From Verrucomicrobiota bacterium (GTDB taxonomy: Bacteria > Verrucomicrobiota > Kiritimatiellia > UBA8416 > JBHORK01): a stretch of DNA of 64,000 nt. Of the stretch, positions 10,478-61,041 are shown in pieces. The position numbers were made by a program, and so were the translations under genes. Where the stretch lies: NCBI GenBank assembly GCA_042565725.1, contig JBHORK010000003.1, forward strand, positions 10,000 to 73,999. Reading direction: 5' to 3'. Positions within the stretch are counted from its first letter, which is position 1. Every line of letters starts with the position of its first letter. Under the pieces are notes generated by a model, which was not told the DNA's origin, ran no database searches, and saw nothing but the letters and a program-made list of their open reading frames with translations.

Positions 10478-10637
10478 CCAAATCGGTATCGAAATCGGTA
10501 TCCAAATCGAAATAACATGGGGTTGGGATGCGAAAAACTGAATATCTGCCGTACTGTGATTCTCTGAATATTGCCTAAGGCAATGGCAAGACGGTGAAAT
10601 CGATAGCGATCCCGATAGCGATAGCGATTTCGATGGG
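10478..10637 (+). pseudogene. Hexamer (ATCGNN) inverted-repeat element enclosing a decayed four-helix-bundle (TIGR02436-like) gene
   Basis: Left arm aatcggtatcgaaatcggtatc, right arm atcgatagcgatcccgatagcgatagcgatttcgat. Inside, ATG 10517 gives MGLGCEKLNICR and another frame gives LNIA*GNGK at 10564-10590. Confidence 0.7.
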
Positions 10638-10823
10638 GTTAAATAATATAACAAAAATAATGAGGTCAAAGTGACAACTTCAAATCAGGACTTGACCAAT
10701 GAAAGGGACAGGAAGGGATAGAGGGGGAGCAACCCTTCTTTTTGGCGAATATATGATCAATAACTACCGCCATTTTCTTTGGGCATGCCCGCCTGATTGC
10801 GAAGCTTTCGGCGGGGTCAATAT

Positions 10824-12191
10824 CTAGCTTTCCCCATTCTGACTCCTGGCTTCTGACTCCTGAATTCTGACTTCTCTCTTAAGCCATTCAAGAAGTTCGC
10901 GTCGATCTTTGAATTGGCCTTCCAATTGAGCGTTGAAAGCTTTCTTATGCAATTTGCCGATTTCCGGCCCCTCCGAAATACCGAGTTGGATAATGTCATT
11001 CCCGTTTATCCAGGGTTTTGGCAGAGGCGGTTCATCACGCAATTGGTTTTTGAATTCCTCAAGGAACCGGTAGTTGCTTAAATCGCCATGGCTGGCAAGG
11101 CAGTCTAAGCGATGGAGTTCCAACTCTACTGAAAACGTTGGTGCGCCGACAAACCTGCGAAGAGTAGAACGTCTCATCTTTTGAACATCCATGAATCTCA
11201 TATGGTTACGGATGCAGTAACTGATCGATTCTGTATCGCTATTTGAAAATTTCAGCCTGCTCAAGATCTTTTTTGAGATTTCAGAACCCATCTCAGAATG
11301 TCCGTTAAATCTGATTCTGTCACCTGCAGTTTCTGTTGCAGTAGGAGGTTTGCCTACATCATGAAGCAATACCGCGTATGCTAGCTGTGGAGAAGGAGAT
11401 GACATTTCATTGAGCATAATGACAGTGTGTTTAAATACGTCACCTTCCGGATGAAATTCCGGTGGTTGTTTCTGGCCTTTCATTTCCGTAACTTCCGGTA
11501 GAATGACCCTGAGAAGCTGAACTTTGTCCAGCAGAACAAGAGCATTGCCGGCCTTCGGGGCCTCTATCAGGATACGCGTAAGTTCTCCTTGTATTCTCTC
11601 TGCGCTGATTCTTGTGATCATTGACGCCGATTTTCTTATTGCATCCTCTGTAGCCGGTTCTAATGAGAAATCAAGTGTTACAGCAAAACGCACAGCTCGA
11701 AGCATCCGTAGATGATCTTCTCGAAAACGATCATCGGGGTTGCCAACACATCGTATGACTTTAGCATCAATATCTTTTTGTCCTTCGACATAGTCATGCA
11801 GTTTATTTGTTATTGGATCTGAAAATAAAGCGTTTATTGTAAAATCACGACGCGTTGCGTCTGTTTCAGGATCTGTAAAAGAAACTTTTTCGGGTCTGCG
11901 TCCGTCTTTATATGCGTGATCTTTCCTGAACGTGGCGATTTCAAAAAACGTGTCTTCGATCGGAGCTCTTACTACTGCAAATGACTGCCCTACGGCAACC
12001 GAGCCTGGAAACAGTTCGATAACCTGCTCGGGTCTGGCGCTGGTTGCTATATCGTAATCCTTGGGATTCTGCCCCATGATAATGTCACGAACACAGCCAC
12101 CGGCCCAGAATGCGGTAAAACCGGCTGATTGCAGCCGCCTGACAGCTTCTACGGCACGTTCATGAAGAGCCTTATTGTTTACGTTATTCAT
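10824..12191 (-). CDS. cca: CCA tRNA nucleotidyltransferase / poly(A) polymerase family, with HD domain
   Basis: AGGCVRD, PKDYDIAT, EIATFR, RRDFTINA, EDHLRMLRAVRF, LLHDVGKP. Confidence 0.92.
   Translation of the reverse strand: MNNVNNKALHERAVEAVRRLQSAGFTAFWAGGCVRDIIMGQNPKDYDIATSARPEQVIELFPGSVAVGQSFAVVRAPIEDTFFEIATFRKDHAYKDGRRPEKVSFTDPETDATRRDFTINALFSDPITNKLHDYVEGQKDIDAKVIRCVGNPDDRFREDHLRMLRAVRFAVTLDFSLEPATEDAIRKSASMITRISAERIQGELTRILIEAPKAGNALVLLDKVQLLRVILPEVTEMKGQKQPPEFHPEGDVFKHTVIMLNEMSSPSPQLAYAVLLHDVGKPPTATETAGDRIRFNGHSEMGSEISKKILSRLKFSNSDTESISYCIRNHMRFMDVQKMRRSTLRRFVGAPTFSVELELHRLDCLASHGDLSNYRFLEEFKNQLRDEPPLPKPWINGNDIIQLGISEGPEIGKLHKKAFNAQLEGQFKDRRELLEWLKREVRIQESEARSQNGES
10836..10878 (-). 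repeat. Heptamer array (GGAGTCA/GAATTCA type) forming the last codons of cca
   Basis: attctgactcctggcttctgactcctgaattctgact; same family as 13409-13445. Confidence 0.75.
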
Positions 12192-12444
12192 CTTAAAAGA
12201 CGGTCGTCATACGGCCTTTCCTTACTCATAACTTTCTGTTTTGTTCGTGCAATATGCATGTTAGCCTGTAGGCTAAAGGCTGTCAGTTTTTCCTGAATGC
12301 TACGGTCTAAAAGTGAGTATGTACAGGACGTTTTTCTTGATGTTGGATGCCTGCAGGCGATGCTTGATAAATCTTCCATCCTTCTGTAAGGTTATCGATC
12401 AGTAGATTTTGACAGGAATGGATTATTCGGCAGAAAAGGAGTTT

Positions 12445-13407
12445 ATGAGAATACTTTCGGGAATACAGCCGTCTGGCAAACTGCATATCGGCAACTATTT
12501 CGGAATGATAAAGCCGGCCCTTGAGCTTCAGGAAAAGGGTGAAGTTTTTCTTTTTATTGCGAATTATCATGCTTTGACTACTGTTGACGATCCCGATCTG
12601 CTCAGGCAAAACACAATTGATATTGCTTTGGATTTTCTGGCGTGTGGTCTTGATCCCGAGCGGGCAATATTTTACCGGCAGAGTGATGTTCCGGAAGTGA
12701 CGGAATTGGCATGGCTGCTTTCGATTGTTACACCCATGGGTCTTCTGGAAAGGTGCCATTCCTACAAGGACAAGCTGGCCAGGGGAATGTCACCTAATCA
12801 TGGACTTTTTGCTTACCCGGTTTTGATGGCCGCGGATATATTGGCATATCAATCCAATATTGTTCCCGTTGGCAAGGATCAGAAACAGCATGTTGAAGTA
12901 ACTCGCGACATAGCTCTTAAGTTTAACAATCGATTTGGTGAAATCTTTACGATTCCAGATTCGTCAATACTGGATTCTGTTGCGGTTGTTCCGGGTGTTG
13001 ACGGGCAAAAAATGTCTAAGTCCTACAATAACCATCTTGAGATTTTTGGCGATGAGAAGGAAACACGTGCGAAAATAATGCGTATTGTTACCGACAGCAA
13101 AACTCTTGAGGACGCGAAAGATCCCGAGAGATGTAACATTTTTGCCCTTTATCGATTGTTTGCGTCAAAAGAAGAGATTGTCAGGATGACGGATCTTTAT
13201 AAATCCGGCGGGTATGGTTACGGAGACGCAAAGAAGGCTTTGTTCGAGCTGATGTGGAACTATTTTGAGCCGTACAGAAAAAAACGGGAAGAACTTGCTA
13301 ATGATCAAAGTTATGTCGAGTCTGTTCTGGAAAAAGGCGCCGAGCGGGCGGCTTCTGAAGCAGGCAAGACTTTGAGTGCGGCACGACGCGCTATGGGGAT
13401 AGATTAG
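12445..13407 (+). CDS. trpS: Tryptophanyl-tRNA synthetase
   Basis: RILSGIQPSGKLHIGNY, YPVLMAADIL, VPVGKDQKQH, KMSKS; AAGGAG before ATG 12445. Confidence 0.98.
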   Translation: MRILSGIQPSGKLHIGNYFGMIKPALELQEKGEVFLFIANYHALTTVDDPDLLRQNTIDIALDFLACGLDPERAIFYRQSDVPEVTELAWLLSIVTPMGLLERCHSYKDKLARGMSPNHGLFAYPVLMAADILAYQSNIVPVGKDQKQHVEVTRDIALKFNNRFGEIFTIPDSSILDSVAVVPGVDGQKMSKSYNNHLEIFGDEKETRAKIMRIVTDSKTLEDAKDPERCNIFALYRLFASKEEIVRMTDLYKSGGYGYGDAKKALFELMWNYFEPYRKKREELANDQSYVESVLEKGAERAASEAGKTLSAARRAMGID

Positions 13408-13408
13408 A

Positions 13409-13445
13409 ATAGAAGACAGAATTCAGGAGTCAGAATTCAGAAGTA
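13409..13445 (+). repeat. Heptamer array downstream of trpS
   Basis: gaagacagaattcaggagtcagaattcagaag. Confidence 0.7.
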
Positions 13446-13483
13446 AATCAAATAAATAATTAATAACTGACAACCAGAGCATT

Positions 13484-14224
13484 ATGAATACACAGGAAGA
13501 ATATAAAGTTGAACTTGAAGTTTTTGAAGGGCCGCTCGATCTTCTCCTTTATCTGATTAAAAGGGAAGAAATTGATATCTACAATATACCCATCGAGAAG
13601 ATTACAACTCAATATATGGAATATCTGAGTCTGATGCGTATGTTGGACTTGAACATTGCAGGAGAATTTATCGTAATGGCGGCTACTTTGATGATGATAA
13701 AAAGCCGCATGCTTTTGCCTGAGGACGAACGGCCCGAATTGGAAGCAGAAGAAGACGATCCGCGATGGGATTTGGTCAGGCAACTTGTGGAATACAAAAA
13801 GTTCAAGGATGCCGCGGGCCACCTTGAGGAGAGGGAGATTCTGCAGGAGAATATCTTTGGGATTGGTGCTGATGGCGTAGTTCTGGAGCAGGATGAGCCG
13901 GGTGTTGTGTTGCAGGATATCAGTCTTTTTGATCTTATTTCCGCTTTCAAAGATGTGCTTTCCAACTCAAAACCGGAAGAAATAGGTGAGATCTTTGCGG
14001 AACAATTTACTGTTGCTGATAAAATAGACGCCATTCTGCATATTGTTGCAGAAAAAGATAAGCTTGCATTTGCGAGCCTTTTTGGCGATATGGCCTCACG
14101 ACATGAGATAACCTGTACTTTTCTGGCATTGCTTGAGCTTATCAGACTGCGACAGGTAAGTGTACGGCAGGAGAAGCAGTTCGGGGAAATAGTTATTTCA
14201 GCGGTTGAAGAAATTACAGTTTAG
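13484..14224 (+). CDS. scpA: Segregation and condensation protein A
   Basis: FEGPLDLLLYLI, EFIVMAATLMMIKSRMLLP, TFLALLELIR. Confidence 0.97.
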   Translation: MNTQEEYKVELEVFEGPLDLLLYLIKREEIDIYNIPIEKITTQYMEYLSLMRMLDLNIAGEFIVMAATLMMIKSRMLLPEDERPELEAEEDDPRWDLVRQLVEYKKFKDAAGHLEEREILQENIFGIGADGVVLEQDEPGVVLQDISLFDLISAFKDVLSNSKPEEIGEIFAEQFTVADKIDAILHIVAEKDKLAFASLFGDMASRHEITCTFLALLELIRLRQVSVRQEKQFGEIVISAVEEITV

Positions 14225-14385: not shown

Positions 14386-14438
14386 CCTGAATTATTCATG
14401 CTTGCATGAATAATTCAGGTTTAGGAGAGGATTGAATA

Positions 14439-16520: not shown

Positions 16521-16715
16521 TAAGCATAATTCGGAAATTGAACACTCAACATCCAACAAGGAATTTCCAATGTCCAAGTTTCGGAATTATTAGAGATTCA
16601 CTTTTTGGTTCTATTCATTTTCAAACATAGATTAAACGATTTTTGAAGGCTGTTTCTTACTCATTCATAATTGGATATTCCTTGTTGGATATTGGATATT
16701 CATATAAATTGCTTA
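16521..16715. repeat. Inverted-arm element, CCAACAAGGAAT family, copy 1
   Basis: Left arm tgaacactcaacatccaacaaggaatttccaatgtccaa, right arm ttggatattccttgttggatattggatattca. Confidence 0.85.
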
Positions 16716-17695: not shown

Positions 17696-19036
17696 GTGAC
17701 TATTGATGATTCCAAAATTATTCGACCGTTTTCTTCCGAGCTTTGTGGGACTGTGCGGGTTCCGGGTGACAAGAGTATATCTCATCGGGCCGTCATGCTC
17801 TCAGCCGTCGCTTCGGGTGAATCTCTGATAGATAATTTCCTGCTGAGCGAGGACTGTCTTGACACACTTCATGCGGTAGAAAGCTTGGGCGTGTCTGTGT
17901 CCAGGGAGGACGTTAGAGTTAGGGTTAAAGGCTTGGGTGGCAAGTTAAGCGCGTCTGGCAGACAGCTTGATTTGGGTAATTCGGGTACGGGAATGCGTCT
18001 TCTAGCCGGATTGCTTGCCGGACAGAAATTCTCATGCGAAATGATGGGAGATGCTTCATTGTTGTCGCGCCCCATGCGGAGAATCAAAGAGCCTCTTGAG
18101 TTGATGGGTGCTAAGGTTGAACTGCTGGGCAGCCGCGAATGTGCGCCAATGCGGATAACCGGTGCAGATTTAGAGGGGATAGAATATAAATTGCCTGTGG
18201 CATCCGCCCAGGTTAAATCGTGTGTGCTTCTGGCAGGCCTTTTTGCGGAAGGCCAAACAACAATTGTTGAACCTGCTCCTTCTCGCGATCATACTGAAAG
18301 AATGCTTCGCGCTATGAATGCGGATATCGAAGTAGATGGACCCACTATTCGCTTGAAAGGTTCAGGGGGTAATCCTCTTTCTCTTAAGGCGGAAGAATGG
18401 ATTATTCCCGGCGATTTTTCTTCCGCAGCTTTCTGGATTACCGCGGCAGCGTGCAGGGAAGGTTCTGAGATAATAGTGGAGAATGTAGGACTTAACCCAA
18501 GGAGAATCGCGTTTCTTGGTGTTTTAGAGAGAATGGGGGCGGATATAGAAGCGATTGCGGATTGCGGATTGCGGAACGCGGAGTGGGAGCCGGTTGGAAA
18601 TATTACGGTGAAAGGGCGAAAGTTGAAAGGGACGGAGATCGGCGGGGAGGAGATACCCAATCTGATTGATGAGTTGCCGTTAGTTGCTGTTGCAGGAATA
18701 TTGGCTGAAGGAAAAACTGTTATTCGGGACGCGGCTGAACTGCGTGTCAAGGAGTCGGACAGAATTGCGACAATGGCCGCAGGTCTCTCGGCTCTTGGAG
18801 TCAAAGTTGAAGAAACCCCTGATGGAATGATAATTGAAGGAGGACAGGAAATCGCTGGTGATGCTCAGGTCGACAGTTGCGGAGATCACCGCATTGCAAT
18901 GGCGCTGGCAGTGCTGGCTCTCTTTGCGGTTGGACCAGTGCGGATTATGCGCACTGACTGTGTTGCAACGTCTTATCCGGGGTTCTGGGAAGAAATGAAG
19001 AAAATGATGAACGGAAGTCAGAGAGCTGAAAACTGA
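17696..19036 (+). CDS. aroA: 3-phosphoshikimate 1-carboxyvinyltransferase (class II EPSPS)
   Basis: PGDKSISHRA, GNSGTGMRL, SAQVKS, RDHTERML, IDELP, ELRVKESDR, DHRIAM. Confidence 0.98.
   Translation: MTIDDSKIIRPFSSELCGTVRVPGDKSISHRAVMLSAVASGESLIDNFLLSEDCLDTLHAVESLGVSVSREDVRVRVKGLGGKLSASGRQLDLGNSGTGMRLLAGLLAGQKFSCEMMGDASLLSRPMRRIKEPLELMGAKVELLGSRECAPMRITGADLEGIEYKLPVASAQVKSCVLLAGLFAEGQTTIVEPAPSRDHTERMLRAMNADIEVDGPTIRLKGSGGNPLSLKAEEWIIPGDFSSAAFWITAAACREGSEIIVENVGLNPRRIAFLGVLERMGADIEAIADCGLRNAEWEPVGNITVKGRKLKGTEIGGEEIPNLIDELPLVAVAGILAEGKTVIRDAAELRVKESDRIATMAAGLSALGVKVEETPDGMIIEGGQEIAGDAQVDSCGDHRIAMALAVLALFAVGPVRIMRTDCVATSYPGFWEEMKKMMNGSQRAEN
18553..18587 (+). repeat. In-frame GATTGCG heptamer array inside aroA
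   Basis: gattgcggattgcggattgcggaacgcggagtggg encodes IADCGLRNAEW. Confidence 0.85.
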
Positions 19037-19784: not shown

Positions 19785-19990
19785 CCTGTAAACGGTTTTC
19801 GGTTGGGGTTGCGCGGCTGGAAACGTCATACCTGCCCGCAGTGCTACAGCGTTGCAGGCGGGCGGTTGAGGTTGCGTATTATAAAGGTTACAAGTTACAA
19901 GGGTTACAGAGGTTACAAGCAGGAAAAGAGATTACGCAACCGTTTGACGATAACCGATTCGAGCGGCGCAACCGATCAACGATGACCGTA
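19785..19990. repeat. Stack of short-repeat remnants including a CCTG hairpin (19831-19862) and a GGTTACA array (19885-19919)
   Basis: cctgcccgcagtgctacagcgttgcaggcggg; aggttacaagttacaagggttacagaggttacaag. Confidence 0.65.
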
Positions 19991-22500: not shown

Positions 22501-22507
22501 GAAGACG

Positions 22508-22627
22508 ATAAATTATGAATTATGAATGATGAATGTAGAGCAGGGATGCGGAAAGGAAGCAAATAATCAAAAGGGAAGGTTGATCCGAATTCTTTTATTC
22601 AGCATTTATCATTTATCGTTTATCATT
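22508..22627. repeat. Inverted heptamer element (ATGAATT / TTATCAT family)
   Basis: Left arm ataaattatgaattatgaatgatgaat, right arm attcagcatttatcatttatcgtttatcatt. Confidence 0.75.
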
Positions 22628-22702: not shown

Positions 22703-22924
22703 ATGCCTAAAAATGACGCAATAGAAGCGCTAGGAACCGTTGTAAAGGTTTTACCCGCAACCATGTACACGGTGCGTCTTGAAAATGGTCACGAGCTTCT
22801 TGCTCATATATCCGGAAAAATGCGGAAAAACTTCATAAAGATTACTACGGGCGACAAAGTAACTCTTGAAATCTCACCTTACGACCTTTCCAAGGGTCGT
22901 ATTACTTATAGACACAAGAATTGA
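22703..22924 (+). CDS. infA: Translation initiation factor IF-1
   Basis: [40 protein letters not shown]. Confidence 0.99.
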
Positions 22925-23020
22925 ACGTCGAACATTGGACATTGAACGTTCAACATCGAAGCATGAGAGAAAATCAGGACTTTCGAAGTTCGAAGTTGAG
23001 TGTTCGATGTTGGAAGTTTA
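22921..23020. repeat. Inverted heptamer element, AACATCG family, empty copy
   Basis: Left arm gaacgtcgaacattggacattgaacgttcaacatcgaa, right arm ttcgaagttcgaagttgagtgttcgatgttggaagtt, spacer of about 20 nt containing an ATG. Confidence 0.85.
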
Positions 23021-24073: not shown

Positions 24074-24757
24074 ATGCCGAAAAACAAGAAAAGCACTGCA
24101 AGCACCAGAAAGACTGCAAAATCAGGCAGAAAAAAGACTGCTTCTGCAGCTAAGAAAAAGCGTTCTTCGTCGAAAACAAAGTCCGTAAAACGGTCTTCAA
24201 AAGCAACTTCTGGCAAGACAAAAAGAAAAGTCGCTAAGAAATCTTCAAAGAAACCTGCTGCAAAAAAAACTACTGCAAAGAAATCTGTCGCAAAAAAAAC
24301 CGTCGCAAAAAAAGTTGTTGTAAGAAAAAAGGCTGAGAAGCCCGTACGTCTTCATATTCCGGCGGACGAGAAGAGAGAGTTTATACAGTTATTGCTGGAT
24401 TTGCGAGAAAGGTTAAAAGGCCAGATTGAGTCGCTGAAGGGTGGGTCGTTGACCAGATCTGATTCCGTAGCGTCGGAGGAAGACGGAACTGATGCATTTG
24501 ATCGTCAATTTGCCCTGAAACTGGTAAGCTCGGAACATGATATTGTCTTTGAGATCGATGAGGCATTACGCAGGATAGAGGCAAGAACTTATGGAGTTTG
24601 TGAAGGGTGTAAAAAAGCTATTGAAAAACTGCGTCTGAAAGCCTTGCCTTTTGTCAAAATGTGCGTGAAATGCCAATCGGAGATTGAAAACGGAAGACCG
24701 GGTTTCTATAAAATAAACTCTCTTGCTCTGAATCATGAAGCAGAAGCAGAGCGCTGA
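24074..24757 (+). CDS. dksA: DksA/TraR C4-zinc-finger protein with Lys/Ala/Ser-rich N-terminal tail
   Basis: EIDEALRRIEARTYGVCEGC, RLKALPF..MCVKCQ; directly upstream of lspA. Confidence 0.85.
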   Translation: MPKNKKSTASTRKTAKSGRKKTASAAKKKRSSSKTKSVKRSSKATSGKTKRKVAKKSSKKPAAKKTTAKKSVAKKTVAKKVVVRKKAEKPVRLHIPADEKREFIQLLLDLRERLKGQIESLKGGSLTRSDSVASEEDGTDAFDRQFALKLVSSEHDIVFEIDEALRRIEARTYGVCEGCKKAIEKLRLKALPFVKMCVKCQSEIENGRPGFYKINSLALNHEAEAER

Positions 24758-25314: not shown

Positions 25315-26298
25315 GTGGCACAAGTTTCATCAAATGCTTATTTTCTTGTAGGGCCAACGGCAGTGGGAAAGAGTTCAGTGGCCCAATGGATAGCGGAAAA
25401 TTATCATTACGATATACTCTCCGCAGATTCCATGCTTGTTTACAAGGGTATGGATATCGGAACCGCAAAACCTTCTAAAGAAAACAGGACCAAAGTTCGT
25501 TACTACGGTGTTGATCTTGTTGATCCCGACGAAACCTTCAGTGTGGGGCATTACTATCGTCACGCGTGCACAGTTCTGAATGAAATAGTTTCCGGCAACA
25601 GAAAGGTCATTGTCGCTGGCGGTACGGGGCTGTACGTTAAAAGCTTAACACATGGGTTCTCGTCTTTACCCGAAAATCGTTCAGAAACGCGTGCTCATTG
25701 GGCGCGGGTGCTCAGCGATCAAGGAGTAACGGCTCTACAGCAGGCGCTACGCGAAAAGAATAAAGCCGTCTATGAAGCTTTGGAAGACAATAAGAACGCT
25801 CGACGTCTGATCCGTGCGTTGGAAATGACTGAAGCAGGGATGAAGGAGTTACCAAGTAATTGGGAGGATGATGCAGGTCTCTCCGATGATAAGTCACGTG
25901 ATAAGAGTTCTGCCCGCAACTGTACGTTAACTGGTTTGATGCTGCCCACGGAACAGCTTCTTTCAAAGATAGAAAAACGAGTAAAGGAGATGTTCGAACA
26001 GGGACTTGTTGAAGAAGTTAAAACTATTATTGATCAGTATGGTGATTTGTCAAACACGGCAAAACAGGCGATAGGTTATTCAGAGGTGGGTTGTCTGTTG
26101 GAAGGAAAATGTTCACTCAGTGAAGCAATTGAAAGAACGGTAATACGAACGCGTCAATTGGCAAAAAAACAAAAGACATGGTTCAGGCACCAGGCTGATG
26201 TAAAATGGATTAATATAGACATTAATATGAAAACACGTGATATTGCGGAACAGGTGCTGGCATGTTGGGAGGAATGCGGACCTGTAGATATTCAATGA
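25315..26298 (+). CDS. miaA: tRNA dimethylallyltransferase
   Basis: GPTAVGKS, SADSMLVYKGMDIGTAKP, GGTGLY, QAIGY, TRQLAKKQKTWFR. Confidence 0.97.
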   Translation: MAQVSSNAYFLVGPTAVGKSSVAQWIAENYHYDILSADSMLVYKGMDIGTAKPSKENRTKVRYYGVDLVDPDETFSVGHYYRHACTVLNEIVSGNRKVIVAGGTGLYVKSLTHGFSSLPENRSETRAHWARVLSDQGVTALQQALREKNKAVYEALEDNKNARRLIRALEMTEAGMKELPSNWEDDAGLSDDKSRDKSSARNCTLTGLMLPTEQLLSKIEKRVKEMFEQGLVEEVKTIIDQYGDLSNTAKQAIGYSEVGCLLEGKCSLSEAIERTVIRTRQLAKKQKTWFRHQADVKWINIDINMKTRDIAEQVLACWEECGPVDIQ

Positions 26299-26420
26299 TA
26301 AAATATGATTGATGAATGATGAAAAAGAGAGGGAAATTAGAAATTGGAAATTTGGAAGTAAAGAGGCAGGTGCTAGGTTTTGGGTTTGAGCCTAACAGCC
26401 TTCAGTCTGCAGCCTAAGTA
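26295..26420. repeat. Stack of heptamer remnants (ATGAATG, GGAAATT, CAGCCTA types)
   Basis: atgattgatgaatgatgaa; ggaaattagaaattggaaatttggaa; agcctaacagccttcagtctgcagccta. Confidence 0.6.
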
Positions 26421-27207: not shown

Positions 27208-27352
27208 GAATATCCAACAGCCAACAAGGAATATCCAGTGACCAAGTTTAAGATTTTAACGGAATTGCGCAAAGAAAAGAACATTGCTTCGTTTTGCCTT
27301 GTCCTCAGTTCCGATGTTCGGTTGGATATTCCTTGTTGGTTATTGGATGTTG
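27208..27352. repeat. Inverted-arm element, CCAACAAGGAAT family, copy 2
   Basis: Left arm gaatatccaacagccaacaaggaatatcca, right arm ttggatattccttgttggttattggatgtt. Confidence 0.85.
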
Positions 27353-29936: not shown

Positions 29937-30017
29937 GGCTTTGAGCTATTTCATGATGTAAGCTTTTTCAATAATTATATATGTGAAAAATAAAAAGGCT
30001 TAATTTATTATCTTTCC

Positions 30018-30095
30018 TGGAGTACTGGAGTGTTGGAGTAATGATTAAATTGGCAAAAATTCTTTTTCCAATACTCCATCATTCCATTACTCCAT
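30018..30095. repeat. Inverted octamer element (TGGAGTAN / TACTCCAN family)
   Basis: Left arm tggagtactggagtgttggagtaatg, right arm caatactccatcattccattactcca. Single arms also at about 39534-39572 and 60746-60763. Confidence 0.8.
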
Positions 30096-30150
30096 TATTT
30101 ATCGGGGCAAATAAACAAAGCAAATAACTCTATTTACAGGCTTATATAAG

Positions 30151-35578: not shown

Positions 35579-35630
35579 ACGTTGTTCGAAAAGGGTTTCG
35601 AACAGCGTATGGTTAATGGTTGATGGTTGA

Positions 35631-38086: not shown

Positions 38087-38226
38087 CCAAATCGCTATCG
38101 AAATCGGTATCGGTATCGAAATAACATGGGATTGAGGTACAAAAAGCAGGACATCTACCGCCTTGTAATAAATTACGTAGCTTGGGTCTACAAAACTACA
38201 GAATCGATTTCGATAGCGATCCCGAT
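38087..38226 (+). pseudogene. Hexamer (ATCGNN) inverted-repeat element with 5' fragment of a four-helix-bundle gene
   Basis: Left arm ccaaatcgctatcgaaatcggtatcggtatcgaaataac, then ATG giving MGLRYKKQDIYRLVINYVAWVYK, then right arm atcgatttcgatagcgatcccgat. Homologous to 10478-10637. Confidence 0.75.
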
Positions 38227-38561
38227 TAAGTTCATTCTAACCGGAATTCCTAGCCTGATCATTGCATGAGTTCAGAGTGACGGAGCTGGCTGGCAGGCGA
38301 CTTACAGTAAAAAGGCCTGTCAGCCAGGTTGGTTTCATTGGACAGGATAAATTTTCATTATCGCTACCGTTTGTGTGGGTCCTCTCTTACCAACCCAGCT
38401 TAAGGCCGCCTATAGTATTAGCATAGAGCATGCCAATAGGGTGGTGAATGTAAGATTGGCACGAGAAACAGCTGAAAATGCCTGTTTTATTAGGGAATTT
38501 AGAGGGAACATGGTACAGCCATTATTAAGCCGGTGAGACAGTTGTTCGAATACCAGAAAGC

Positions 38562-38772
38562 AATTCTAAGCACTAAACCCTAAATTCTAAACAATCCGCC
38601 GTTGCCAAGGCTATGGCGGGACAAGATTTCAATGATCTAAATTCAAATGCTCAAAACGCAGAGAATGCTCAGAAGTGCAGATCTGCAAGTATTGGCACCA
38701 AATGTTTTGATTATTTGAACATTAGAATTTAGGATTTGTTTAGAAATTATATATTAGATATTAGGATTTCGC
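38562..38772. repeat. Long inverted heptamer element (CTAAATT / AATTTAG family) with a nested hairpin micro-element at 38595-38625
   Basis: Left arm aattctaagcactaaaccctaaattctaaacaa...ctaaattcaaatgctcaaaac, right arm gttttgattatttgaacattagaatttaggatttgtttagaa...attaggattt. Confidence 0.85.
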
Positions 38773-39489: not shown

Positions 39490-39597
39490 GGGGGAAAGCG
39501 AAAAAAAACCGATTGCGCTGTGGCGCAAACGGCGTGGAGTAATGGAGTATTGGGCTTATGGTAACATTGGAGTGAAATTCCCGTATTTCTTTTAAAT

Positions 39598-41881: not shown

Positions 41882-42811
41882 ATGAATTTACCAGCAATAA
41901 TAGATAACCCTGAAGTTGCTGAAATAGTACGCCGGGCCTTGAAAGAAGACATCGGGGCGGGCCCTGCACCAGAGCAAGCACGATGCAGGGCAGGTGATAT
42001 AACTACCAATGCGATTATCCCTGAATCTGCGATCGCAAAGGCGGCTATTGTTTCGCGCGGCGCGTATGTTCTGGCAGGGATTGATGTGGCGCGAATGGTT
42101 TTTTCAGAAGTTGATTCCGGGATTCAATGCAAAACTGATATTAACGATGGGCAGGGTGTAAAAGCGGATCAAGGCGTAATGACCATAGAGGGCCCTGCGC
42201 GTGGAATTCTTACAGGTGAACGGACGGCTCTTAATTTCGTGCAGAGAATGACCGGTATAGCTACGCTTACAAATCAGTTTGTTGAAAAGGTCAAAAAATA
42301 CGGAGTTGTCATCCTCGATACACGCAAGACAACTCCGGGTCTTCGCGTATTGGAAAAATATGCAGTGCTGTGCGGCGGCGGTGTGAATCACAGAAATGGA
42401 CTGTATGACAGAGTCTTGATAAAGGATAATCATCTTCGGATTGCGGATTGCGGATTGCGGATTGCGGAAAGAGGGGAAGGGAACGCGGATTGCGGATTGC
42501 CGATTGCGGATTGTATAAAAAAGGCGAAAGATCTGAATCCGGGGGTTATTATTGAGGTGGAGGTGGAGAATGAGAAAGAGCTGGAGGATGCTCTAAAGGG
42601 CCGTCCTGATTGGGTTTTGCTCGATAATATGCCGCCTGAGCAATTGAGGCGATGTGTGGATATTTGTGCTGGCAGAGCGAAACTTGAGGCATCCGGCGGA
42701 ATAACACTCGAGAATGTCGAAAAAATAGCCCAAACCGGAATTAACGCTATATCGCTGGGCTGTCTGACACATTCGGCGCCGGCATCAGATTTTTCATTGG
42801 AAATTATTTAA
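41882..42811 (+). CDS. nadC: Nicotinate-nucleotide pyrophosphorylase carrying two in-frame repeat-derived insertions
   Basis: ALKEDIG..GDITT, ILTGERTALNF, LDTRKTTPGLR, LIKDNH, EVEVE, LLDNM, LEASGGIT. Confidence 0.97.
   Translation: MNLPAIIDNPEVAEIVRRALKEDIGAGPAPEQARCRAGDITTNAIIPESAIAKAAIVSRGAYVLAGIDVARMVFSEVDSGIQCKTDINDGQGVKADQGVMTIEGPARGILTGERTALNFVQRMTGIATLTNQFVEKVKKYGVVILDTRKTTPGLRVLEKYAVLCGGGVNHRNGLYDRVLIKDNHLRIADCGLRIAERGEGNADCGLPIADCIKKAKDLNPGVIIEVEVENEKELEDALKGRPDWVLLDNMPPEQLRRCVDICAGRAKLEASGGITLENVEKIAQTGINAISLGCLTHSAPASDFSLEII
41962..41994 (-). mobile_element. 33-bp CCTG-hairpin micro-element inserted in frame in nadC
   Basis: ccctgcaccagagcaagcacgatgcagggcagg; removing it restores EDIGAGDITT. 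Confidence 0.8.
42437..42513 (+). repeat. In-frame GATTGCG heptamer array inside nadC
   Basis: (gattgcg)x4 ... gaacgcg gattgcg gattgcc gattgcg gattgt encodes RIADCGLRIAERGEGNADCGLPIADC. Confidence 0.9.
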
Positions 42812-46077: not shown

Positions 46078-46161
46078 GAATCGAAATCGCTATCGGGATC
46101 GCTATCGAAATCGAAAACATGAGGGAGAGGAAAAGACGATCCCGATTTCGATTTGGATGGG
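46078..46161. repeat. Hexamer (ATCGNN) inverted-repeat element, empty copy
   Basis: aatcgaaatcgctatcgggatcgctatcgaaatcgaaaacATG, about 15 nt, then cgatcccgatttcgatttggatggg. Confidence 0.8.
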
Positions 46162-50852: not shown

Positions 50853-51162
50853 TAATACGATCCTTTCTTTAATAAACGTCTATGTGTGGCAGATAAAATC
50901 AGGCCATGTAGCCAAACTTTAAAGGCTAAATCTAGCAGTAACCCAATAAATATCAAGGATAATTCATGGAATATCTCGCCTGCCCCGTGATACTAGCCAG
51001 AAGCCAGAAATAGGCGGACGGTCAAGAAAAAAGTTTGCCCCAAAGAGTTGTTGGTTTGTTGAGTTGTTGGTTGTTAAGGGGAACATTTTGGAATATTAAA
51101 CCCTGAGCAAATAGTAATTTATAAAAGTTTATGTTTCCCAAGTATTCGCGCAAAGCGCGCAA

Positions 51163-51195
51163 GATCCTGTCGATCCTGTTGATCCTGTCTAAAAA
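51163..51195. repeat. Nonamer array (GATCCTGTN), single arm
   Basis: gatcctgtcgatcctgttgatcctgtctaaaaa; reverse complement of the arms at about 41752, 57521 and 59634. Confidence 0.75.
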
Positions 51196-52051: not shown

Positions 52052-52085
52052 GAACTATTAACTGATAACCATTAACCAATAACTG
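52052..52085. repeat. Heptamer array (TAACCAT/TAACTGA), single arm
   Basis: gaactattaactgataaccattaaccaataactg; reverse complement of the ATGGTTA/ATGGTTG array at 35609. Confidence 0.65.
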
Positions 52086-52093: not shown

Positions 52094-53104
52094 ATGCAAA
52101 CAGCCAGATTCTGGGAGAAGACAGATAAAGGGCAGCTTAGCTGTCAGCTTTGTCCTCATAACTGTCTGCTTGCAGACGGCAAGACAGGTCTGTGCGGAGT
52201 ACGTCGCGCTCAGGATGGGGAGCTGAAAGCGATTGGATACGGGCTTTTGTCTTCATCTGCCATGGATCCGATAGAGAAGAAGCCTCTATATCATTTTCAT
52301 CCGGGATCGAACATCTTCAGCATAGGAGGGTGGGGCTGTAATTTTAAGTGTGATTTTTGTCAAAACTGGACAATCTCTCAGCAGATAATAGAGCAGTCCG
52401 ATCGATATTCTCCCGATGAAGTTGTTGCCAAAGCCGCGGCAAGTGATTCGATAGGGATTGCCTACACTTATAATGAGCCATTAATCGCGTATGAATTCGT
52501 AAGGGATTGCGCTCGGATCGCCAGGGCAAAGGGTTTGGTAAACGTACTTGTGACCAACGGTCACATCAATCGTGAGCCGGCGGCGGAATTATTGCCATTA
52601 ATAGATGCTTTGAATATTGATATCAAAAGTATGGACAGCAATTTTTACAGGGAACATTGTCATGGTTTTCTGGAGCCAGTCTTACATTTCGCCAGACAGG
52701 CGGTTGAGGCCGGGTGTCATGTTGAGCTTACAAATTTACTTATTCCCGGATTAAATGATAATCCGGACGATATAAAATCTCTAGCAGGATGGATTGGTGA
52801 TAATCTGGATGATGGTGTGCCTTTACATATAAGCGCATATCGGCCGCAATATAAACTGAAAAATCCGCCTACCTCAATGGAATTACTTGAACAGGCTTAT
52901 GCGATATGTTCCAAAGAATTGTCATATGTTTATATTGGGAATGTGATTATGGGTATAGGGCAAGATACATTGTGTTCGGGATGCGGCGAAGTTCTGATTT
53001 CGCGGCATGGATACTCAGCGCGGGTACTGGCTATTGATAATGGGGTGTGTACCGCGTGCGGGGCGAAGGTGTCAGGATGGTTTAAACCTCAAAAGAGTGG
53101 TTAA
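52094..53104 (+). CDS. amrS: AmmeMemoRadiSam system radical SAM enzyme
   Basis: CQLCPHNC, DPIEKKPLYHFHPGS, GCNFKCDFCQNW.ISQ, IAYTYNEP, YVYIGNV, C-terminal C..C pairs. Confidence 0.93.
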   Translation: MQTARFWEKTDKGQLSCQLCPHNCLLADGKTGLCGVRRAQDGELKAIGYGLLSSSAMDPIEKKPLYHFHPGSNIFSIGGWGCNFKCDFCQNWTISQQIIEQSDRYSPDEVVAKAAASDSIGIAYTYNEPLIAYEFVRDCARIARAKGLVNVLVTNGHINREPAAELLPLIDALNIDIKSMDSNFYREHCHGFLEPVLHFARQAVEAGCHVELTNLLIPGLNDNPDDIKSLAGWIGDNLDDGVPLHISAYRPQYKLKNPPTSMELLEQAYAICSKELSYVYIGNVIMGIGQDTLCSGCGEVLISRHGYSARVLAIDNGVCTACGAKVSGWFKPQKSG

Positions 53105-53200
53105 ATATCCAATATCCAACAAGGAATATCCAATTCCCAAGTGAAGATTCCAATAGATCCGTTGGATGTTGGACATTCCTTGTTGGATATTGAGTGTTCA
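53104..53200. repeat. Inverted-arm element, CCAACAAGGAAT family, copy 3
   Basis: Left arm aatatccaatatccaacaaggaatatccaattcccaa, right arm ttggatgttggacattccttgttggatattgagtgttca. Confidence 0.85.
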
Positions 53201-54971: not shown

Positions 54972-55042
54972 AATGAAATATCCGATTCAGTGTAGGATTA
55001 TGATCCCCTCGGTATGTGTGTGAAACGATATAATAAACGTTA

Positions 55043-57450: not shown

Positions 57451-57520
57451 ACTGCCATGCTAATTCTGCTGTCGAAGAAGTCAAGCCTTTAACACAGGGA
57501 GGAAATTGCGCTGTTAAGAG

Positions 57521-57583
57521 ATTTTAGACGGGATCAACAGAATAACAGGCGGGTAGGCACGAATCCCGCTATGCGGGGCAGGC
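57521..57583. repeat. Nonamer arm followed by a CCTG-hairpin remnant
   Basis: attttagacgggatcaacagaataacagg ... aatcccgctatgcggggcagg. Confidence 0.55.
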
Positions 57584-57595
57584 GAAATACGTTAT

Positions 57596-58726
57596 TTATG
57601 GCGTTGAAATTCGAGGTAGAATAACCGAAAAAGTTGTGCCTTTATTGACTTCAGACGTTACCCCAATGTCTCCTTTGTGATCCCTGATGATGCCCCTGGA
57701 GATTGAGAGCCCCAACCCGGTGCCTTCGCCTTTTTCTTTTGTTGTGTAGAATGACCCGAATATTCCCTCAAGCTGATCAGAAGGTATGCCTGTTCCCGTG
57801 TCTGACACATCGCATTTCCAGCAATTCACATTGTTATACTTGCATGTCCCAATTTTGAGCCGAAGTTCTTTTCTTTCACGATCGGCCATAGCGTCACAGG
57901 CATTACCGATGAGATTGACAAAAACCTGTTCCATATGATTGGGACAGCCGGTTATCATGTGTTTACCTTTTTTAACTTCATTATGAACTTTTACATTTGT
58001 TTTCTGGATCTTGTTATTAATTATAAACAAAGCATCCGCAATACTGTTGTAAAGGTCAACCGGTTCGTATTTCTCGGCTATGCCGCGCGAAAAGTTTCTT
58101 AAATGATCGGCAAGTTTCTGGATAGATTTAGACGCTCTCTCGATATCCTTTGCAAAGGTCAGAAGACGCTGTAGGTCAGTGTCATTGTCTTTTTCTATAA
58201 GGCTTAATTCCCTGAGCATCATTTCGTTTGAGAGCAGAATAACAGTTAACGGGTTGTTGATGTCATGCGCGACACCGGAAGAAAGTTCTCCAATAGCGGC
58301 CAGCCGGCCCGAATGAGCCAGGCTTCTCTGAAGTTCTTTAACATTTCTGATATCTCTCAGAATTGAAAACGTGCGTATAAAATTACCATCATCATCGTAA
58401 ATACCGAAAGACCTGATTTCAACGGGTATTATTGTGCCGTCTTTAGTCTTTAACAGGCTTTCGGGAATCAGCTTGTCGCCGCGTTCCTTAAGGTCCGTGA
58501 AACCCTTTTCGACGTCATGCATGACTTCGTTGGCATAGATATCACGGATATTCATGGATAGTAATTCGTCGTGAGTGTATCCTAGAAGTGATTCGGCGGT
58601 TTTATTAGCATAGACGATGTTGCCATTTTCGTCTATTGAGTGGATTATATCAGGGAAACTGTCCAGCAGTATCTTGAATATATTCGCGTTACTAATCTCA
58701 ATCTCATGTATTCGCATTTTAGTCAT
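57596..58726 (-). CDS. Cytoplasmic PAS-domain sensor histidine kinase (NtrB-like)
   Basis: PAS (IVYANKTAESLLGY), GELSSGVAHDINNPL H-box, QVFVNLIGNACDA, DTGTGIP, FYTTKEKGEGTGLGLSI. Confidence 0.95.
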   Translation of the reverse strand: MTKMRIHEIEISNANIFKILLDSFPDIIHSIDENGNIVYANKTAESLLGYTHDELLSMNIRDIYANEVMHDVEKGFTDLKERGDKLIPESLLKTKDGTIIPVEIRSFGIYDDDGNFIRTFSILRDIRNVKELQRSLAHSGRLAAIGELSSGVAHDINNPLTVILLSNEMMLRELSLIEKDNDTDLQRLLTFAKDIERASKSIQKLADHLRNFSRGIAEKYEPVDLYNSIADALFIINNKIQKTNVKVHNEVKKGKHMITGCPNHMEQVFVNLIGNACDAMADRERKELRLKIGTCKYNNVNCWKCDVSDTGTGIPSDQLEGIFGSFYTTKEKGEGTGLGLSISRGIIRDHKGDIGVTSEVNKGTTFSVILPRISTP

Positions 58727-58747
58727 AACAGAATAAATCTTACGTGG

Positions 58748-59572
58748 TTATTTCGAACTGTGTAATAACATGTTTTCCGTGGCAGCGTGTGTTTCCGGGA
58801 AAAGCTTTCTGGCATCCTCAACAATACTCTCAATGTCTTTGTCTTTCCTGACCGGTTCGTGATGGGTCAGGACAAGCTTTTGGACTTTTGCTTCAATGGC
58901 GGCCCGAACTGCGACCTTCCACGTGCTGTGTCCCCATCCGCTATGTGAAAGATATTCTTTCGGTGTGTACTGAGCGTCAAATATAAGGCAATCGGCGGTG
59001 GCACAAAAATTAATGAAAGCTGGATCAATGTCATCTTCTCTGTATTCTACGTCTGTTGCTATTACAATGTCCTTGCCGGGCATATTTACGCGGTACGCGA
59101 TGCAGCCCTGGGGGTGGGGTACCCTGAACCATGATATTTCGATTCCGTAAAGATTGAGACTGCATTTATCAGCAGGAAGATCAACAAGGTTCATTGCCGC
59201 ATCAGTTTCTGCAAGACCCACAGGCCAGTAAGGTTTGCCGACGATGGTTTTGAGCGTCTTTTTCCAATCATCATCCCGTTCGGGATCTGCCATTATCTGT
59301 ATATTGGCTTTTTTATTGTACAGCGGTGCAAAACTTGGCAGACCAATAAGATGATCCATGTGGAAATGGGTAAAAAGCATTGTTATAGGAAGCGGTTGAG
59401 GTTGATTAGAAAGAGTTTCCGCGGCGAATGAAATTCCTGTCCCGGCATCAAAGATAATATTTCCGGTGTCGGTATTGACTGTAAAACATGATGTATTGCC
59501 TCCGTAGACACGATATGCTTCACCAAAGGCTGGCATAGTCCCTCGAGCCCCTCTTATCATGAATTCATGCAT
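58748..59572 (-). CDS. Metallo-beta-lactamase-fold hydrolase (phosphodiesterase-like)
   Basis: GARGTMP, YGGNTSC, FDAGTGI, THFHMDHLIGLP, HPQG, DAQYT..EY....GWGHST, HHEP. Confidence 0.92.
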   Translation of the reverse strand: MHEFMIRGARGTMPAFGEAYRVYGGNTSCFTVNTDTGNIIFDAGTGISFAAETLSNQPQPLPITMLFTHFHMDHLIGLPSFAPLYNKKANIQIMADPERDDDWKKTLKTIVGKPYWPVGLAETDAAMNLVDLPADKCSLNLYGIEISWFRVPHPQGCIAYRVNMPGKDIVIATDVEYREDDIDPAFINFCATADCLIFDAQYTPKEYLSHSGWGHSTWKVAVRAAIEAKVQKLVLTHHEPVRKDKDIESIVEDARKLFPETHAATENMLLHSSK

Positions 59573-59579
59573 CAGAGAA

Positions 59580-59608
59580 ATCCTAGAATCTCAACCTGCC
59601 TTTGTCAA
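59580..59608 (-). promoter_or_regulatory. sigma70 promoter placing the start site at the MBL-hydrolase ATG (leaderless candidate)
   Basis: Minus strand TTGACA-17-TAGGAT-7 nt-ATG. Confidence 0.6.
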
Positions 59609-59633
59609 TGAGGAGAATTTACGCTGCAAGACT

Positions 59634-59820
59634 TTTTTAGACAGGATCAACTGGATCAACAGGATGTTTCGCGCTTCCGCCTTCGCTCTGCAAGCTACAG
59701 CGGACAGGTCGCGCGAATTGAAGTGCTCCAGAGGCTTTCGCCCTTGGTCGACGTGTACGGGGTCAATTCTGTTGTCTTCTCCTCTCCTTAATCATGTTCA
59801 TCCTGTAAATCCTGTCAAAA
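59634..59820. repeat. Inverted nonamer element (ACAGGATNA) with nested CCTG-hairpin micro-element at 59676-59708
   Basis: Left arm ttttagacaggatcaactggatcaacaggat, right arm aatcatgttcatcctgtaaatcctgtcaaaa, inner tccgccttcgctctgcaagctacagcggacagg. Confidence 0.8.
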
Positions 59821-59929
59821 TTCTCTTCTCTTTGAGGTAAATTGCTTTTCTAATCCCCATTTTGTATTGTTATTATTCTATAATTCAATACAGTAAATAA
59901 CTTACTATTATGGGACGGAGGCTGTTTTA

Positions 59930-60718
59930 TTGACTATGCTTTCAAAGACAGGCGGGTATGTTTTGAAGCGATGGCTATCGGTTCGCCATGTTGCCGCAGT
60001 AGTTTGGGGTGTTCTCAGTCTGGCTCCAAGGCCGAACTGTTGGCCCAGGACAGTACGCTCACTCTTTGGGCGGCAGATTCTTTTTACCGGTATTGAGGCT
60101 CTGGGTATCATATCTCTGATAGCGTTTCTGGCCGGTATTTCTGTTGTTACCCAAACACAAGTCTGGCTTACAAGAATTGGTCAGACGGAAATGCTGGGTT
60201 CTGTTCTGGTTATGGTGATTGTACGTGAGGTAGGCCCAATCCTTGTAAACCTGGTTGTTGCAGGGCGAAGCGGAACTGCCATGGCGGCAGAACTGGCCAA
60301 TATGCGGGTGCGCGGTGAAATCAATGTCCTTGACGCGCAGGGAATTGAACCGATGCAATATCTTGTGATGCCGCGGGTTCTTGGTATGGCTGTTTCCGTT
60401 TTTTGTCTAACTATAATATTTATTGCTTTGGCCTTGGGAACAGGTTTTGTTTTTGGGTTCTTCCTTAAAGTCACTACAAGCGATCCCGGACTTTTCTTTA
60501 ATAATGTAATGTCAGCGATCTCGCCAAAAGATATTGCGAATGTGTTTGCCAAAACGATTATTCCCGGCCTGACCACGGGGGCAATAAGCTGTATTAGTGG
60601 ACTGAGCGTCAGGGGGGCAGTGACAGAAGTTCCTGTGGCAGTAACGCGCAGCGTGGTTGCATCTATAGTTACAGTATTGGTTCTTTCAGCGTTATTTTCA
60701 GTGCTTACGTATGTGTAG
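59930..60718 (+). CDS. mlaE: MlaE-family ABC permease
   Basis: VREVGPIL..LVVAGRSGTAMAAELANMRVRGEINVLDAQGIEP..YLVMPRV, VP.AVTRSVV. Confidence 0.92.
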   Translation: MTMLSKTGGYVLKRWLSVRHVAAVVWGVLSLAPRPNCWPRTVRSLFGRQILFTGIEALGIISLIAFLAGISVVTQTQVWLTRIGQTEMLGSVLVMVIVREVGPILVNLVVAGRSGTAMAAELANMRVRGEINVLDAQGIEPMQYLVMPRVLGMAVSVFCLTIIFIALALGTGFVFGFFLKVTTSDPGLFFNNVMSAISPKDIANVFAKTIIPGLTTGAISCISGLSVRGAVTEVPVAVTRSVVASIVTVLVLSALFSVLTYV

Positions 60719-60824
60719 GAAGCGTGAAACGTATCTCGTGAAGCGGGGAGTAGTGGAGTAATGAAAAGATGAGGGATGCCGTCATTATGGCCATGGGTTA
60801 TTACTTGAGAAAAACGTTTGAAAA

Positions 60825-61041
60825 TGAACATCGAACATTGAACTTTCAACATCGAACATCGAAATAAAGGGAAATAAGAACGTGTCAAGACGCAAATATG
60901 ATCTTGAAGACAGGCTTCTTGAATATATGGCATCTGTACTGCCCGGAACAACAACGTTTGAGAAAACACGGAGTATGGCTGCTGACATGCATTCTGCAAC
61001 TTCGATGTTGGAAGTTCAATGTTCAATGTTCGATGTTCGAT
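60825..61041 (+). pseudogene. Inverted heptamer element (AACATCG family) enclosing the 5' fragment of a four-helix-bundle gene
   Basis: Left arm gaacatcgaacattgaactttcaacatcgaacatcgaa, GTG 60882 giving MSRRKYDLEDRLLEYMASVL, right arm ttcgatgttggaagttcaatgttcaatgttcgatgttcga. Confidence 0.75.

Follow-up and report, generated by a model that had tools for sequence, protein, structure and literature searches.

Cyanobacterial STRR (short tandemly repeated repetitive) sequences are over-represented heptamer repeats of intergenic DNA, and REPINs are intergenic doublets of inverted repeats that form hairpins and occur in tens of copies, alongside a single-copy gene encoding a REP-associated tyrosine transposase (RAYT) that is flanked by its own repeat type; in this system the repeat type tracks the gene clade and the target is not duplicated. 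The relevant passages of two papers describe heptamers in other bacteria, namely the GGGAATC repeat of Xanthomonas, with 70-75 convergent pairs that could form stem-loops (PMC4692102), and the TAACTGA repeat of Beggiatoaceae, which forms over-represented intergenic arrays (PMC4679880). The closest described system is the intervening sequence (IVS) of 23S rRNA genes, which in Coxiella, according to the corresponding passages of PMC4990558, has an S23p open reading frame (ORF), a 28-bp terminal stem, tandem GACAGAT heptamers whose copy number varies between strains, and cleavage and excision by RNase III, and is viewed as selfish and horizontally spread. Here we analyse a 64,000-nucleotide stretch (C137:10000-73999 in our contig numbering, hereafter the window) of a Verrucomicrobiota genome (GCA_042565725.1; 2.96 Mb in 203 contigs, 73% complete), in which many intergenic spaces hold tandem arrays of 6-9-nucleotide (nt) units, often as two inverted arms. 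An initial annotation of the window had proposed that such arms form, together with a small four-helix-bundle gene, a transposase-free mobile cassette that decays to empty elements. Our results support a widened version of this idea, with a second cargo family, a rule that holds across phyla, an identity with the IVS and a REPIN-like logic. We consider it likely that a selfish small-gene cassette has these paired arrays as its terminal arms, and the best reading, by analogy, is that this cassette is of the same kind as the 23S rRNA IVS, here located between ordinary genes.

The first cargo family, PF05635, resembles the Avd protein of diversity-generating retroelements, with homologous fold and pentamer in the part of PMC10053308 that deals with it, and its genes (as 23S_rRNA_IVP) have been described in cas loci, without any link to arms (PMC3936711). 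The literature covered, which leaves supplements and subscription journals outside, holds no general statement tying PF05635 or PF13366 genes to flanking inverted tandem repeats.

Small genes between inverted arrays

Profile searches of the genome with PF05635 and TIGR02436 return six genes each, all of them outside the window, with scores of 61-118 bits (against a cut-off of 33.8) and 69-114 bits (against 24) in the family hidden Markov models (HMMs). Each of these four-helix genes (6/6, by eye) is flanked by mutually reverse-complementary arrays, with GTTACA[AG] as the unit on C118, CGTGAAG / CGTATTT on C126, ATCGNN on C77 and ATCGGAT on C177 and for both genes on C182. The C118 protein has a match in 2gsc, the structure of pentameric XCC0516 (E 2.8e-12), and Q44, R47, S51 and N55 are invariant across five aligned four-helix genes of the genome, which therefore show the R..S...N..E part of the family motif GxxRxxxSxxxNxxE (PMC3936711). 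Of this motif, the window retains only the piece LNIA*GNGK, interrupted by a stop codon.

The second cargo family is PF13366, the GxxExxY proteins, found at nine places of the genome as five near-full genes (124-142 bits, one with a TAG) and four fragments; the C22 protein matches TIGR04256 at 4e-42. All near-full genes are again armed (5/5, by eye), with the units ACAGGAT, CACGGAG (twice), CGCGAAA and CACGAAT. The window has no PF13366/TIGR04256 gene, and of this family it holds the ACAGGAT arm type only (59641-59816). At one GxxExxY locus, C20:3208-3343, the end of the upstream gene and the left arm of the cassette are directly duplicated over 61 nt, which may be a trace left by the making or lengthening of arms.

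The generality of the arms was assessed by locally aligning the 200 nt upstream of each gene to the reverse complement of the 200 nt downstream, a score of at least 12 being taken as positive, and by replacing the downstream flank with its reversed or complemented copy as controls. Four-helix loci from other families of the order are positive in 24/29 cases (controls 1 and 3), and so are 68 of the 77 evaluable four-helix loci from many phyla (80 fetched with a single-protein query; controls 7 and 7), a set that spans Verrucomicrobiota, Ignavibacteria, Bacteroidota, Patescibacteria, Leptospiraceae, Bdellovibrionales, Gammaproteobacteria, Flexilinea and Erysipelotrichaceae. Of the GxxExxY loci sampled within the phylum, 23/29 are positive (controls 2 and 6), and the annotated plasmid genes of Nostoc punctiforme, Trichormus variabilis, Riemerella and Picosynechococcus are all armed (4/4). 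The arms are also specific, since the test, applied to crude gene calls, is positive for 51 of the 2014 other genes in this genome, versus 6 of its 11 cassette genes. That intact family genes carry flanking arms is thus borne out in this genome, in the order, across phyla and on plasmids. Over 99 positive loci, the median arm measures 36 nt, the median distance from the end of the left arm to the start codon is 25 nt, that from the stop codon to the right arm is 7 nt, and the period of the arms, where clear, is 7 nt (31 arms), 8 nt (13) or 9 nt (24). An intact cassette would accordingly start with a left arm of 7-, 8- or 9-nt units and a short leader, continue with a single gene of some 120-145 codons and close with a right arm in reverse complement to the left one, the predicted cargo being either a pentameric four-helix bundle (PF05635/TIGR02436) or a GxxExxY protein with a PD-(D/E)XK fold (PF13366/TIGR04256).

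One of the plasmid loci deserves a separate mention. In Picosynechococcus sp. PCC 7003 (NZ_CP016476.1:126146-127290, locus L264), the armed four-helix gene lies between cas10/cmr2 and cmr3, a case in which the published association of the family with cas loci may reflect insertion rather than function.

The arms belong with the gene that they flank. Shared arm 6-mers correlate with protein identity (Spearman 0.61, reached by 0/500 permutations, n=99) in a set where kin are non-independent and which includes cross-phylum pairs; sharing is close to nil below 40% protein identity, and between 60 and 80% identity, 63% of the pairs share at least one fifth of their 6-mers. GxxExxY arms have a distinct unit set of their own, and 'type 2' four-helix genes have NNC[C/G]AAC units. 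The suggestion that each repeat unit is linked to its own protein subfamily therefore holds, and the co-variation of arms and protein shows a cassette that is inherited and copied whole. This cassette is also polar, since its gene lies on the strand of its neighbours in 63 of the 66 cases in which both neighbours are co-oriented, and the left arm on the sense strand is purine-rich in 84/95 arms (those with exactly half purines excluded) and contains 12% C. Together, these two features tie the polarity of the element to transcription of the host operon. The cassette sits between co-directional host genes, in their orientation and close to stop and start codons.

Gene-less derivatives and empty sites

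The window contains inverted array pairs at twelve sites, eleven of which were folded. All eleven (11/11) are predicted to form a terminal stem in which the 3' end pairs with 14-29 of the first 35 bases, and their folding z-scores relative to shuffled copies range from -1.9 to -8.5; the long hairpin of the cassette is thus a prediction, and individual z values are given below. Coordinates are those of the window, and a strand is stated where one was assigned.

Three of these sites (plus strand) belong to ATCGNN cassettes. Type A (10477-10697) has its left arm at 10477-10513, its right arm at 10601-10634 and an interior (10517-10600) consisting of the remnant four-helix start MGLGCEKLNICR at 10517 and the LNIA*GNGK piece, followed 3' of the right arm by a conserved 63-nt tail (10635-10697) that ends in the hairpin GGTCAAAG..CTTGACC. 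It occurs in eight genome copies of 85-95% identity, which have an identical internal deletion and differ by a 6-nt indel, so that unit copy number varies. Type B (38089-38227; arms 38089-38122 and 38207-38227) keeps the first 22 codons of a four-helix gene and has three copies with an identical deletion junction. In type C (46079-46158; arms 46080-46101 and 46137-46158; z -4.3), also present in three copies, of about 91% identity, the ATG is followed by the right arm. A comparable pair is found among AACATCG cassettes (plus strand), one of which (60826-61041; z -5.6) retains a type 2 four-helix gene up to about codon 41 (60882-61010) between arms at 60826-60863 and 61001-61041, which are 89% complementary over 38 nt. 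The other (22921-23018; arms 22921-22960 and 22982-23018; z -4.4) is gene-less and overlaps, with its first unit, the stop codon of infA.

The peptides on which the initial annotation relied are present as it had read them, namely MGLGCEKLNICR plus LNIA*GNGK (10517-10600), MGLRYKKQDIYRLVINYVAWVY (38126) and RRKYDLEDRLLEY (60882), and their assignment to the four-helix family stands in part, by matches to intact relatives and not by the family HMMs. The stretch 38126-38212, which reads MGLRYKKQDIYRLVINYVAWVY and then the right arm, resembles the N-terminal part encoded by the ATCG-armed gene on C77 (48% over 29 aa, genome-wide E 4e-4; 75% over 16 aa in a second comparison), and the DNA of the 38089 element is 70% identical to the intact C77 cassette over 107 nt. 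The 60882-61010 fragment matches P0001, a four-helix gene that is intact in a relative (pairwise E 7e-8, 37% over 43 aa), and the intact type 2 genes of the P0001 clade have NNCGAAC or NNCCAAC heptamer arms, which fits the AACATCG unit of the window. The 10517 fragment matches the C77 gene weakly (58% over 12 aa, E 0.04), and the DNA of its element is 81% identical to that of the 38089 element over 74 nt.

Further gene-less cassettes extend the series. The CCAACAAGGAAT family, which had not been connected to any gene in the initial annotation, is represented at 16539-16702 (arms 16539-16571 and 16670-16702; z -4.2), at 27209-27351 (arms 27209-27237 and 27323-27351; z -6.3; whole-length copies, 82-86% identical, at C122 and C143) and at 53104-53192 (beginning at a stop codon; arms 53110-53140 and 53162-53192; z -8.5), and residues of the type 2 four-helix clade are still encoded by two further copies, 48 of them at C136 (E 3.8e-14) and 46 at C22 (E 3.5e-11). 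The ACAGGAT cassette at 59641-59816 (arms 59641-59665 and 59790-59816) has the arm type of the GxxExxY gene at C22:8884-9273, and three of the four HMM-positive GxxExxY fragments of the genome lie within ACAGGAT arms. The TGGAGTA-unit cassette at 30017-30099 (arms 30017-30040 and 30066-30099; z -8.1) has at least six further copies of 78-89% identity. The remains of the cognate gene at either end of gene-less pairs mean that these pairs originated from full cassettes. The decay series that had been proposed is therefore upheld; sequence comparison shows that cassettes decay by internal deletion into gene-less hairpin elements, themselves multi-copy. Cassettes are also found within each other, as an ATCG cassette lies inside a CGTGAAG-type four-helix gene at C126:66288-66670, with an identical junction at C111.

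The 20-nt arm end shared by the 16539, 27209 and 53104 elements, CCAACAAGGAATWTCCAATG, includes the ATG. With at most one mismatch, it occurs 47 times in the genome, 37 of these copies having an ORF of less than 20 aa after the ATG, and it is found in 35 of 61 genomes of the order; a reversed control is found nowhere. It is nearly unchanged in at least 13 families whose housekeeping DNA is about 65-70% identical, a pattern indicative of recent spread or, alternatively, of a constraint on the sequence of the arm.

Orthologous sites differ as expected of an insertion, the nearest genomes compared sharing the order but not the family of this one. In the rpmH-rnpA-yidD operon, the C126 cassette separates rnpA from yidD, in a junction of about 505 nt, versus a gap of -31 to +51 nt between yidD and the upstream ORF (defined by position, with no family assigned) in 26/28 relatives. 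The AACATCG cassette downstream of infA is absent in 16/16 relatives, about five of which have other arrays or hairpins in that region (by eye).

Repeat arrays of the window and genome

Tandem Repeats Finder (TRF) returns 65 rows for the window and recovers, at or near the places where they had been read, all eleven unit families named in the initial annotation. Arrays with a score of at least 40 number 20 in the window versus 2 in a dinucleotide-shuffled copy, and 725 versus 70 genome-wide. An inverted partner within 2 kb (alignment score of at least 14) is found for 79 of the 1549 genome arrays of at least 18 nt, compared with 4.5 in reversed or complemented controls. This excess, together with the inverted pairs and their predicted terminal stems, confirms the arrays as a genuine feature of the DNA. 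About 15 unit families account for 372 of the 725 strong arrays, and by eye most of the largest ones are arm types of cassette genes, here or in relatives. The intergenic share of the arrays, 46-50%, is a floor value of no evidential use, because the crude longest-ORF gene model behind it extends ORFs through arms.

Arrays hug genes, those at 13411 and 53104 beginning at, or at most 4 nt from, a stop codon. The heptamer array at 10836-10875 (TTCTGAC / GGAGTCA) spans the 3' end of a poly(A) polymerase-like gene, and its GGAGTCA unit also makes the arms of four-helix genes in two relatives (L041 and L043) and on the Nostoc and Trichormus plasmids. The AGAAGTC array at 13411-13444, 4 nt past a stop codon, is complementary to it and has no partner within 2 kb; the two arrays lie 2.5 kb apart at the 3' ends of two divergently oriented genes, each in equal orientation relative to its own gene. 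Two inverted pairs complete the set of paired sites, an ATGAATT-unit one at 22505-22627 (arms 22505-22527 and 22597-22619; z -2.6), directly 3' of the stop codon of a permease gene, and a CTAAATT-unit one at 38562-38768 (arms 38562-38594 and 38736-38768, 73% complementary; z -5.1). Solitary arrays are found at 19886-19919 (GGTTACAAG, the unit of the C118 four-helix cassette), at 35609-35630 (ATGGTTG, 3' of a stop codon; TRF) and at 51048-51189, where there are two, TTGTTGGT and GATCCTGTC, the latter a right-arm type of the ACAGGAT family. TRF also gives two short arrays (AATGATG and GGAAATT) at a gene end (26294-26357), a short TGGAGTAA array (39535-39553) and an AACCATT array between two genes (52053-52083).

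Two arrays on the plus strand lie in frame within genes, as seen by TRF and Pfam, GATTGCG x3 at 18553-18582 in the EPSP synthase gene aroA and a direct CGGATTG x11 array, with a spacer, at 42437-42513 in nadC. They add about 10 and 26 residues, respectively, to otherwise full-length Pfam domains. The coding repeats of 18/24 nt and 15/30 nt within long ORFs, at 1086-1203 and 24246-24313, are ordinary protein repeats outside the cassette phenomenon. Pfam was run on ten ORFs of the window, whose flanking genes include panD, the poly(A) polymerase-like gene, argS, galK, mlaE, aroA and nadC. Scans of the window found no Rfam family at gathering threshold and no tRNA gene.

How the arms might have arisen

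The mechanism that we envisage would make the element kin of the ORF-bearing 23S rRNA IVS of Coxiella and Leptospira, landed in operons and not in rRNA. Host transcription reading through it would give a transcript that folds into a long stem, which RNase III could cleave, and the complementarity of the arms, acting as terminal inverted repeats, would arise and be maintained at the level of DNA. If REPIN/RAYT is a guide, the protein that the cassette encodes may act on the arms around its own gene. The proposal of a mobile cassette thus stands in its main lines, with the qualifications that its mobility is deduced from comparison of sequences, its hairpin is predicted and most arrays are solitary.

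Several observations weigh against this picture. Movement itself was not observed, and no mobilising enzyme was identified, the window ORFs not having been scanned for transposases beyond the ten sent to Pfam. The aligned borders of the eight type A copies display no target-site duplication, and the 63-nt tail outside the right arm is common to seven of them, so that the arms do not always mark the limits of the copied unit, which can be longer than the armed part. PF05635 and TIGR02436 have no match on the window contig at E<=10, an NCBIfam scan of two window fragments (35 and 43 aa) finds no family, and a custom HMM reaches E 0.5-9 on the window fragments. Several of the 35 genomes with the 20-mer arm end yielded no cognate gene with the one query used, which hints at a host-level constraint rather than pure selfishness. 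Detectable inverted pairing among TRF arrays amounts to 13-18%, leaving 82-87% without a detected partner (about half for the strong arrays of the window), and the arrays within aroA and nadC are not arms; the cassette is therefore not the direct account of most arrays. Finally, a signature of RNA-level pairing, sought as an excess of G.U over C.A among arm mismatches, is absent on the sense strand (149 G.U-type versus 172 C.A-type, p 0.22). The stem hence lacks the look of an RNA helix under selection, so that the RNase III part of the mechanism is weakened, and the arms seem to owe their complementarity to DNA-level processes rather than to selection on RNA. An intrinsic terminator was considered and rejected on reading the sequence, as the right arms ending at 23018, 27351, 30099 and 53192 are rich in A+T and lack a T run after them.

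The large share of solitary arrays, together with those in frame in aroA and nadC, the 6-nt indel between copies of one element and the heptamer excess and convergent pairs described without an attached gene in the passages of PMC4692102 and PMC4679880, would all suit a scenario in which the arrays came before the genes, replication slippage or some array-making activity, comparable to what is seen with cyanobacterial STRR and the Xanthomonas GGGAATC arrays, producing hairpin pairs as one outcome and small genes settling or surviving in hairpins that already existed. We find this unlikely, because the gene remnants at either end of gene-less pairs trace these back to full cassettes, because arm units track the protein clade across phyla, which insertion into random hairpins would not lead one to expect, and because the largest of the few unit families that make up half of the strong arrays are mostly cassette arm types. 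We reject the plain insertion of genes into ready-made hairpins on account of the gene remnants inside gene-less pairs. The selfish cassette, in which arms and gene travel together, also has to be set against a purely local role of the arms, as an in-place processing or stabilising stem that frees a monocistronic mRNA, gene-less pairs being ordinary regulatory hairpins. Such a device would account for the co-orientation of gene and flanks (63/66), the closeness of the arms to the ORF, the strong predicted stems and, judging from the part of PMC4990558 that describes it, the RNase III cleavage of the equivalent Coxiella stem. It is nevertheless improbable, given the mismatches without G.U excess, the multi-copy deletion derivatives with common junctions, the cassette nested in another, the relatives without a cassette at rnpA-yidD and infA and the recurrence of the same arm types and protein clades in distant phyla.

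Mobility in trans is another matter, since the arms could be REP/REPIN-like sequences moved by the Y1 (HUH) transposases of the genome. There are five PF01797 matches, the gene at C177:5631-6101 scores as a REP-associated tyrosine transposase (2.8e-33) and is flanked by its own palindromic repeats, and the lack of target duplication recalls IS200/IS605 elements. We give this very little credence, as the repeats beside RAYT genes are palindromic units of 21-46 nt unrelated to the heptamer arms, the arm type follows the cargo protein and not the transposase, and the same architecture is found in 68/77 loci across phyla, a comparison that did not extend to the co-occurrence of Y1 genes.

Other repeat-flanked genes were seen along the way. 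The genome has two REP-associated tyrosine transposase genes with their own palindromic flanking repeats (C177:5491-6429 and C159:39073-39525), the one on C177 being followed downstream by a 46-nt tandem array unrelated to the heptamer arms. A 526-aa ORF lies between long inverted repeats (score 60.5) at C128:4488-6065, and 349-aa proteins with a Y1_Tnp domain are flanked by inverted repeats at C122:2809-3855 and C164:1224-2273; these three are probably ordinary insertion sequences.

Implications

If the cassette reading is true, it would (i) give PF05635 (outside diversity-generating retroelements) and PF13366, two large families without a known role, a shared genomic definition as the cargo of repeat-armed cassettes, (ii) lead to a re-reading of reported associations (cas loci in PMC3936711, and the cmr2-cmr3 case) as promiscuous insertion, (iii) turn the 23S rRNA IVS into a special case of a general element and (iv) provide the surplus of intergenic heptamer arrays in several phyla with a testable origin. 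In this respect, decayed cassettes such as those of the window may explain why repeat arrays crowd between bacterial genes. There are practical sides as well, because hairpins inside operons (in rpmH-rnpA-yidD, after infA, after argS) are likely to affect mRNA processing, and hairpins break assemblies and gene calls.

A far-reaching extension, which we put forward tentatively and hold to be possible rather than probable, is that the intergenic heptamer excess of cyanobacteria (STRR) and Xanthomonas (GGGAATC) would be the arms and wreckage of one ancient class of selfish cassettes that crosses phyla. Their cargo proteins, a pentameric four-helix bundle or a GxxExxY nuclease of PD-(D/E)XK type, would recognise their own units and drive copying, in a partnership resembling REPIN/RAYT but without an HUH transposase, and the 23S rRNA IVS and the 'CRISPR-associated' 23S_rRNA_IVP genes would be chance landings.

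Comparison with known systems

Avd belongs with a template and a variable repeat, neither of which was seen beside cassette genes, where no search for a reverse transcriptase was made. MITEs (miniature transposable elements with inverted repeats), which are non-autonomous, resemble the cassettes in being small, with terminal inverted repeats and many copies that arise by internal deletion of a gene-bearing parent; here, however, the parent has no transposase, there is no target-site duplication and the arms are tandem arrays of variable length. The logic of REPIN/RAYT is similar, with its intergenic hairpin doublets, its gene flanked by its own repeats, its tracking of clade by repeat and its lack of target duplication, but the cargo described here scores with TIGR02436 or TIGR04256 and is not a Y1/HUH transposase, its repeats are tandem 6-9-nt units and not one palindrome, and the RAYTs of this very genome have other repeats. 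The intergenic heptamers (STRR, GGGAATC and TAACTGA) have in common with our arrays a 7-nt unit, a mostly intergenic location and closeness to the end of the upstream ORF. The passages of PMC4692102 and PMC4679880 make no link to a gene, and searches inside the two papers find neither 'four-helix' nor 'four helix', whereas the arrays described here are tied to two gene families.

It is the 23S rRNA IVS that comes nearest. The cassettes of the window differ from it in lying between protein-coding genes and not in a 23S helix; the 23S gene of the genome measures 2953 nt against the 2925 positions of the model, and so has no large insertion, and the scanned context of 20 cassette loci contains no rRNA and one tRNA. 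GxxExxY cargo, multi-copy gene-less derivatives and a cross-phylum rule have no counterpart in the passages available on the IVS. The likeness lies in the architecture, a PF05635 cargo with terminal inverted repeats that form a long stem and, in the Coxiella passages, heptamers that adjoin the ORF, and it is this arrangement, an S23p/PF05635 ORF between stem-forming terminal inverted repeats, that recurs at the cassette loci of the genome, of the order and across phyla.

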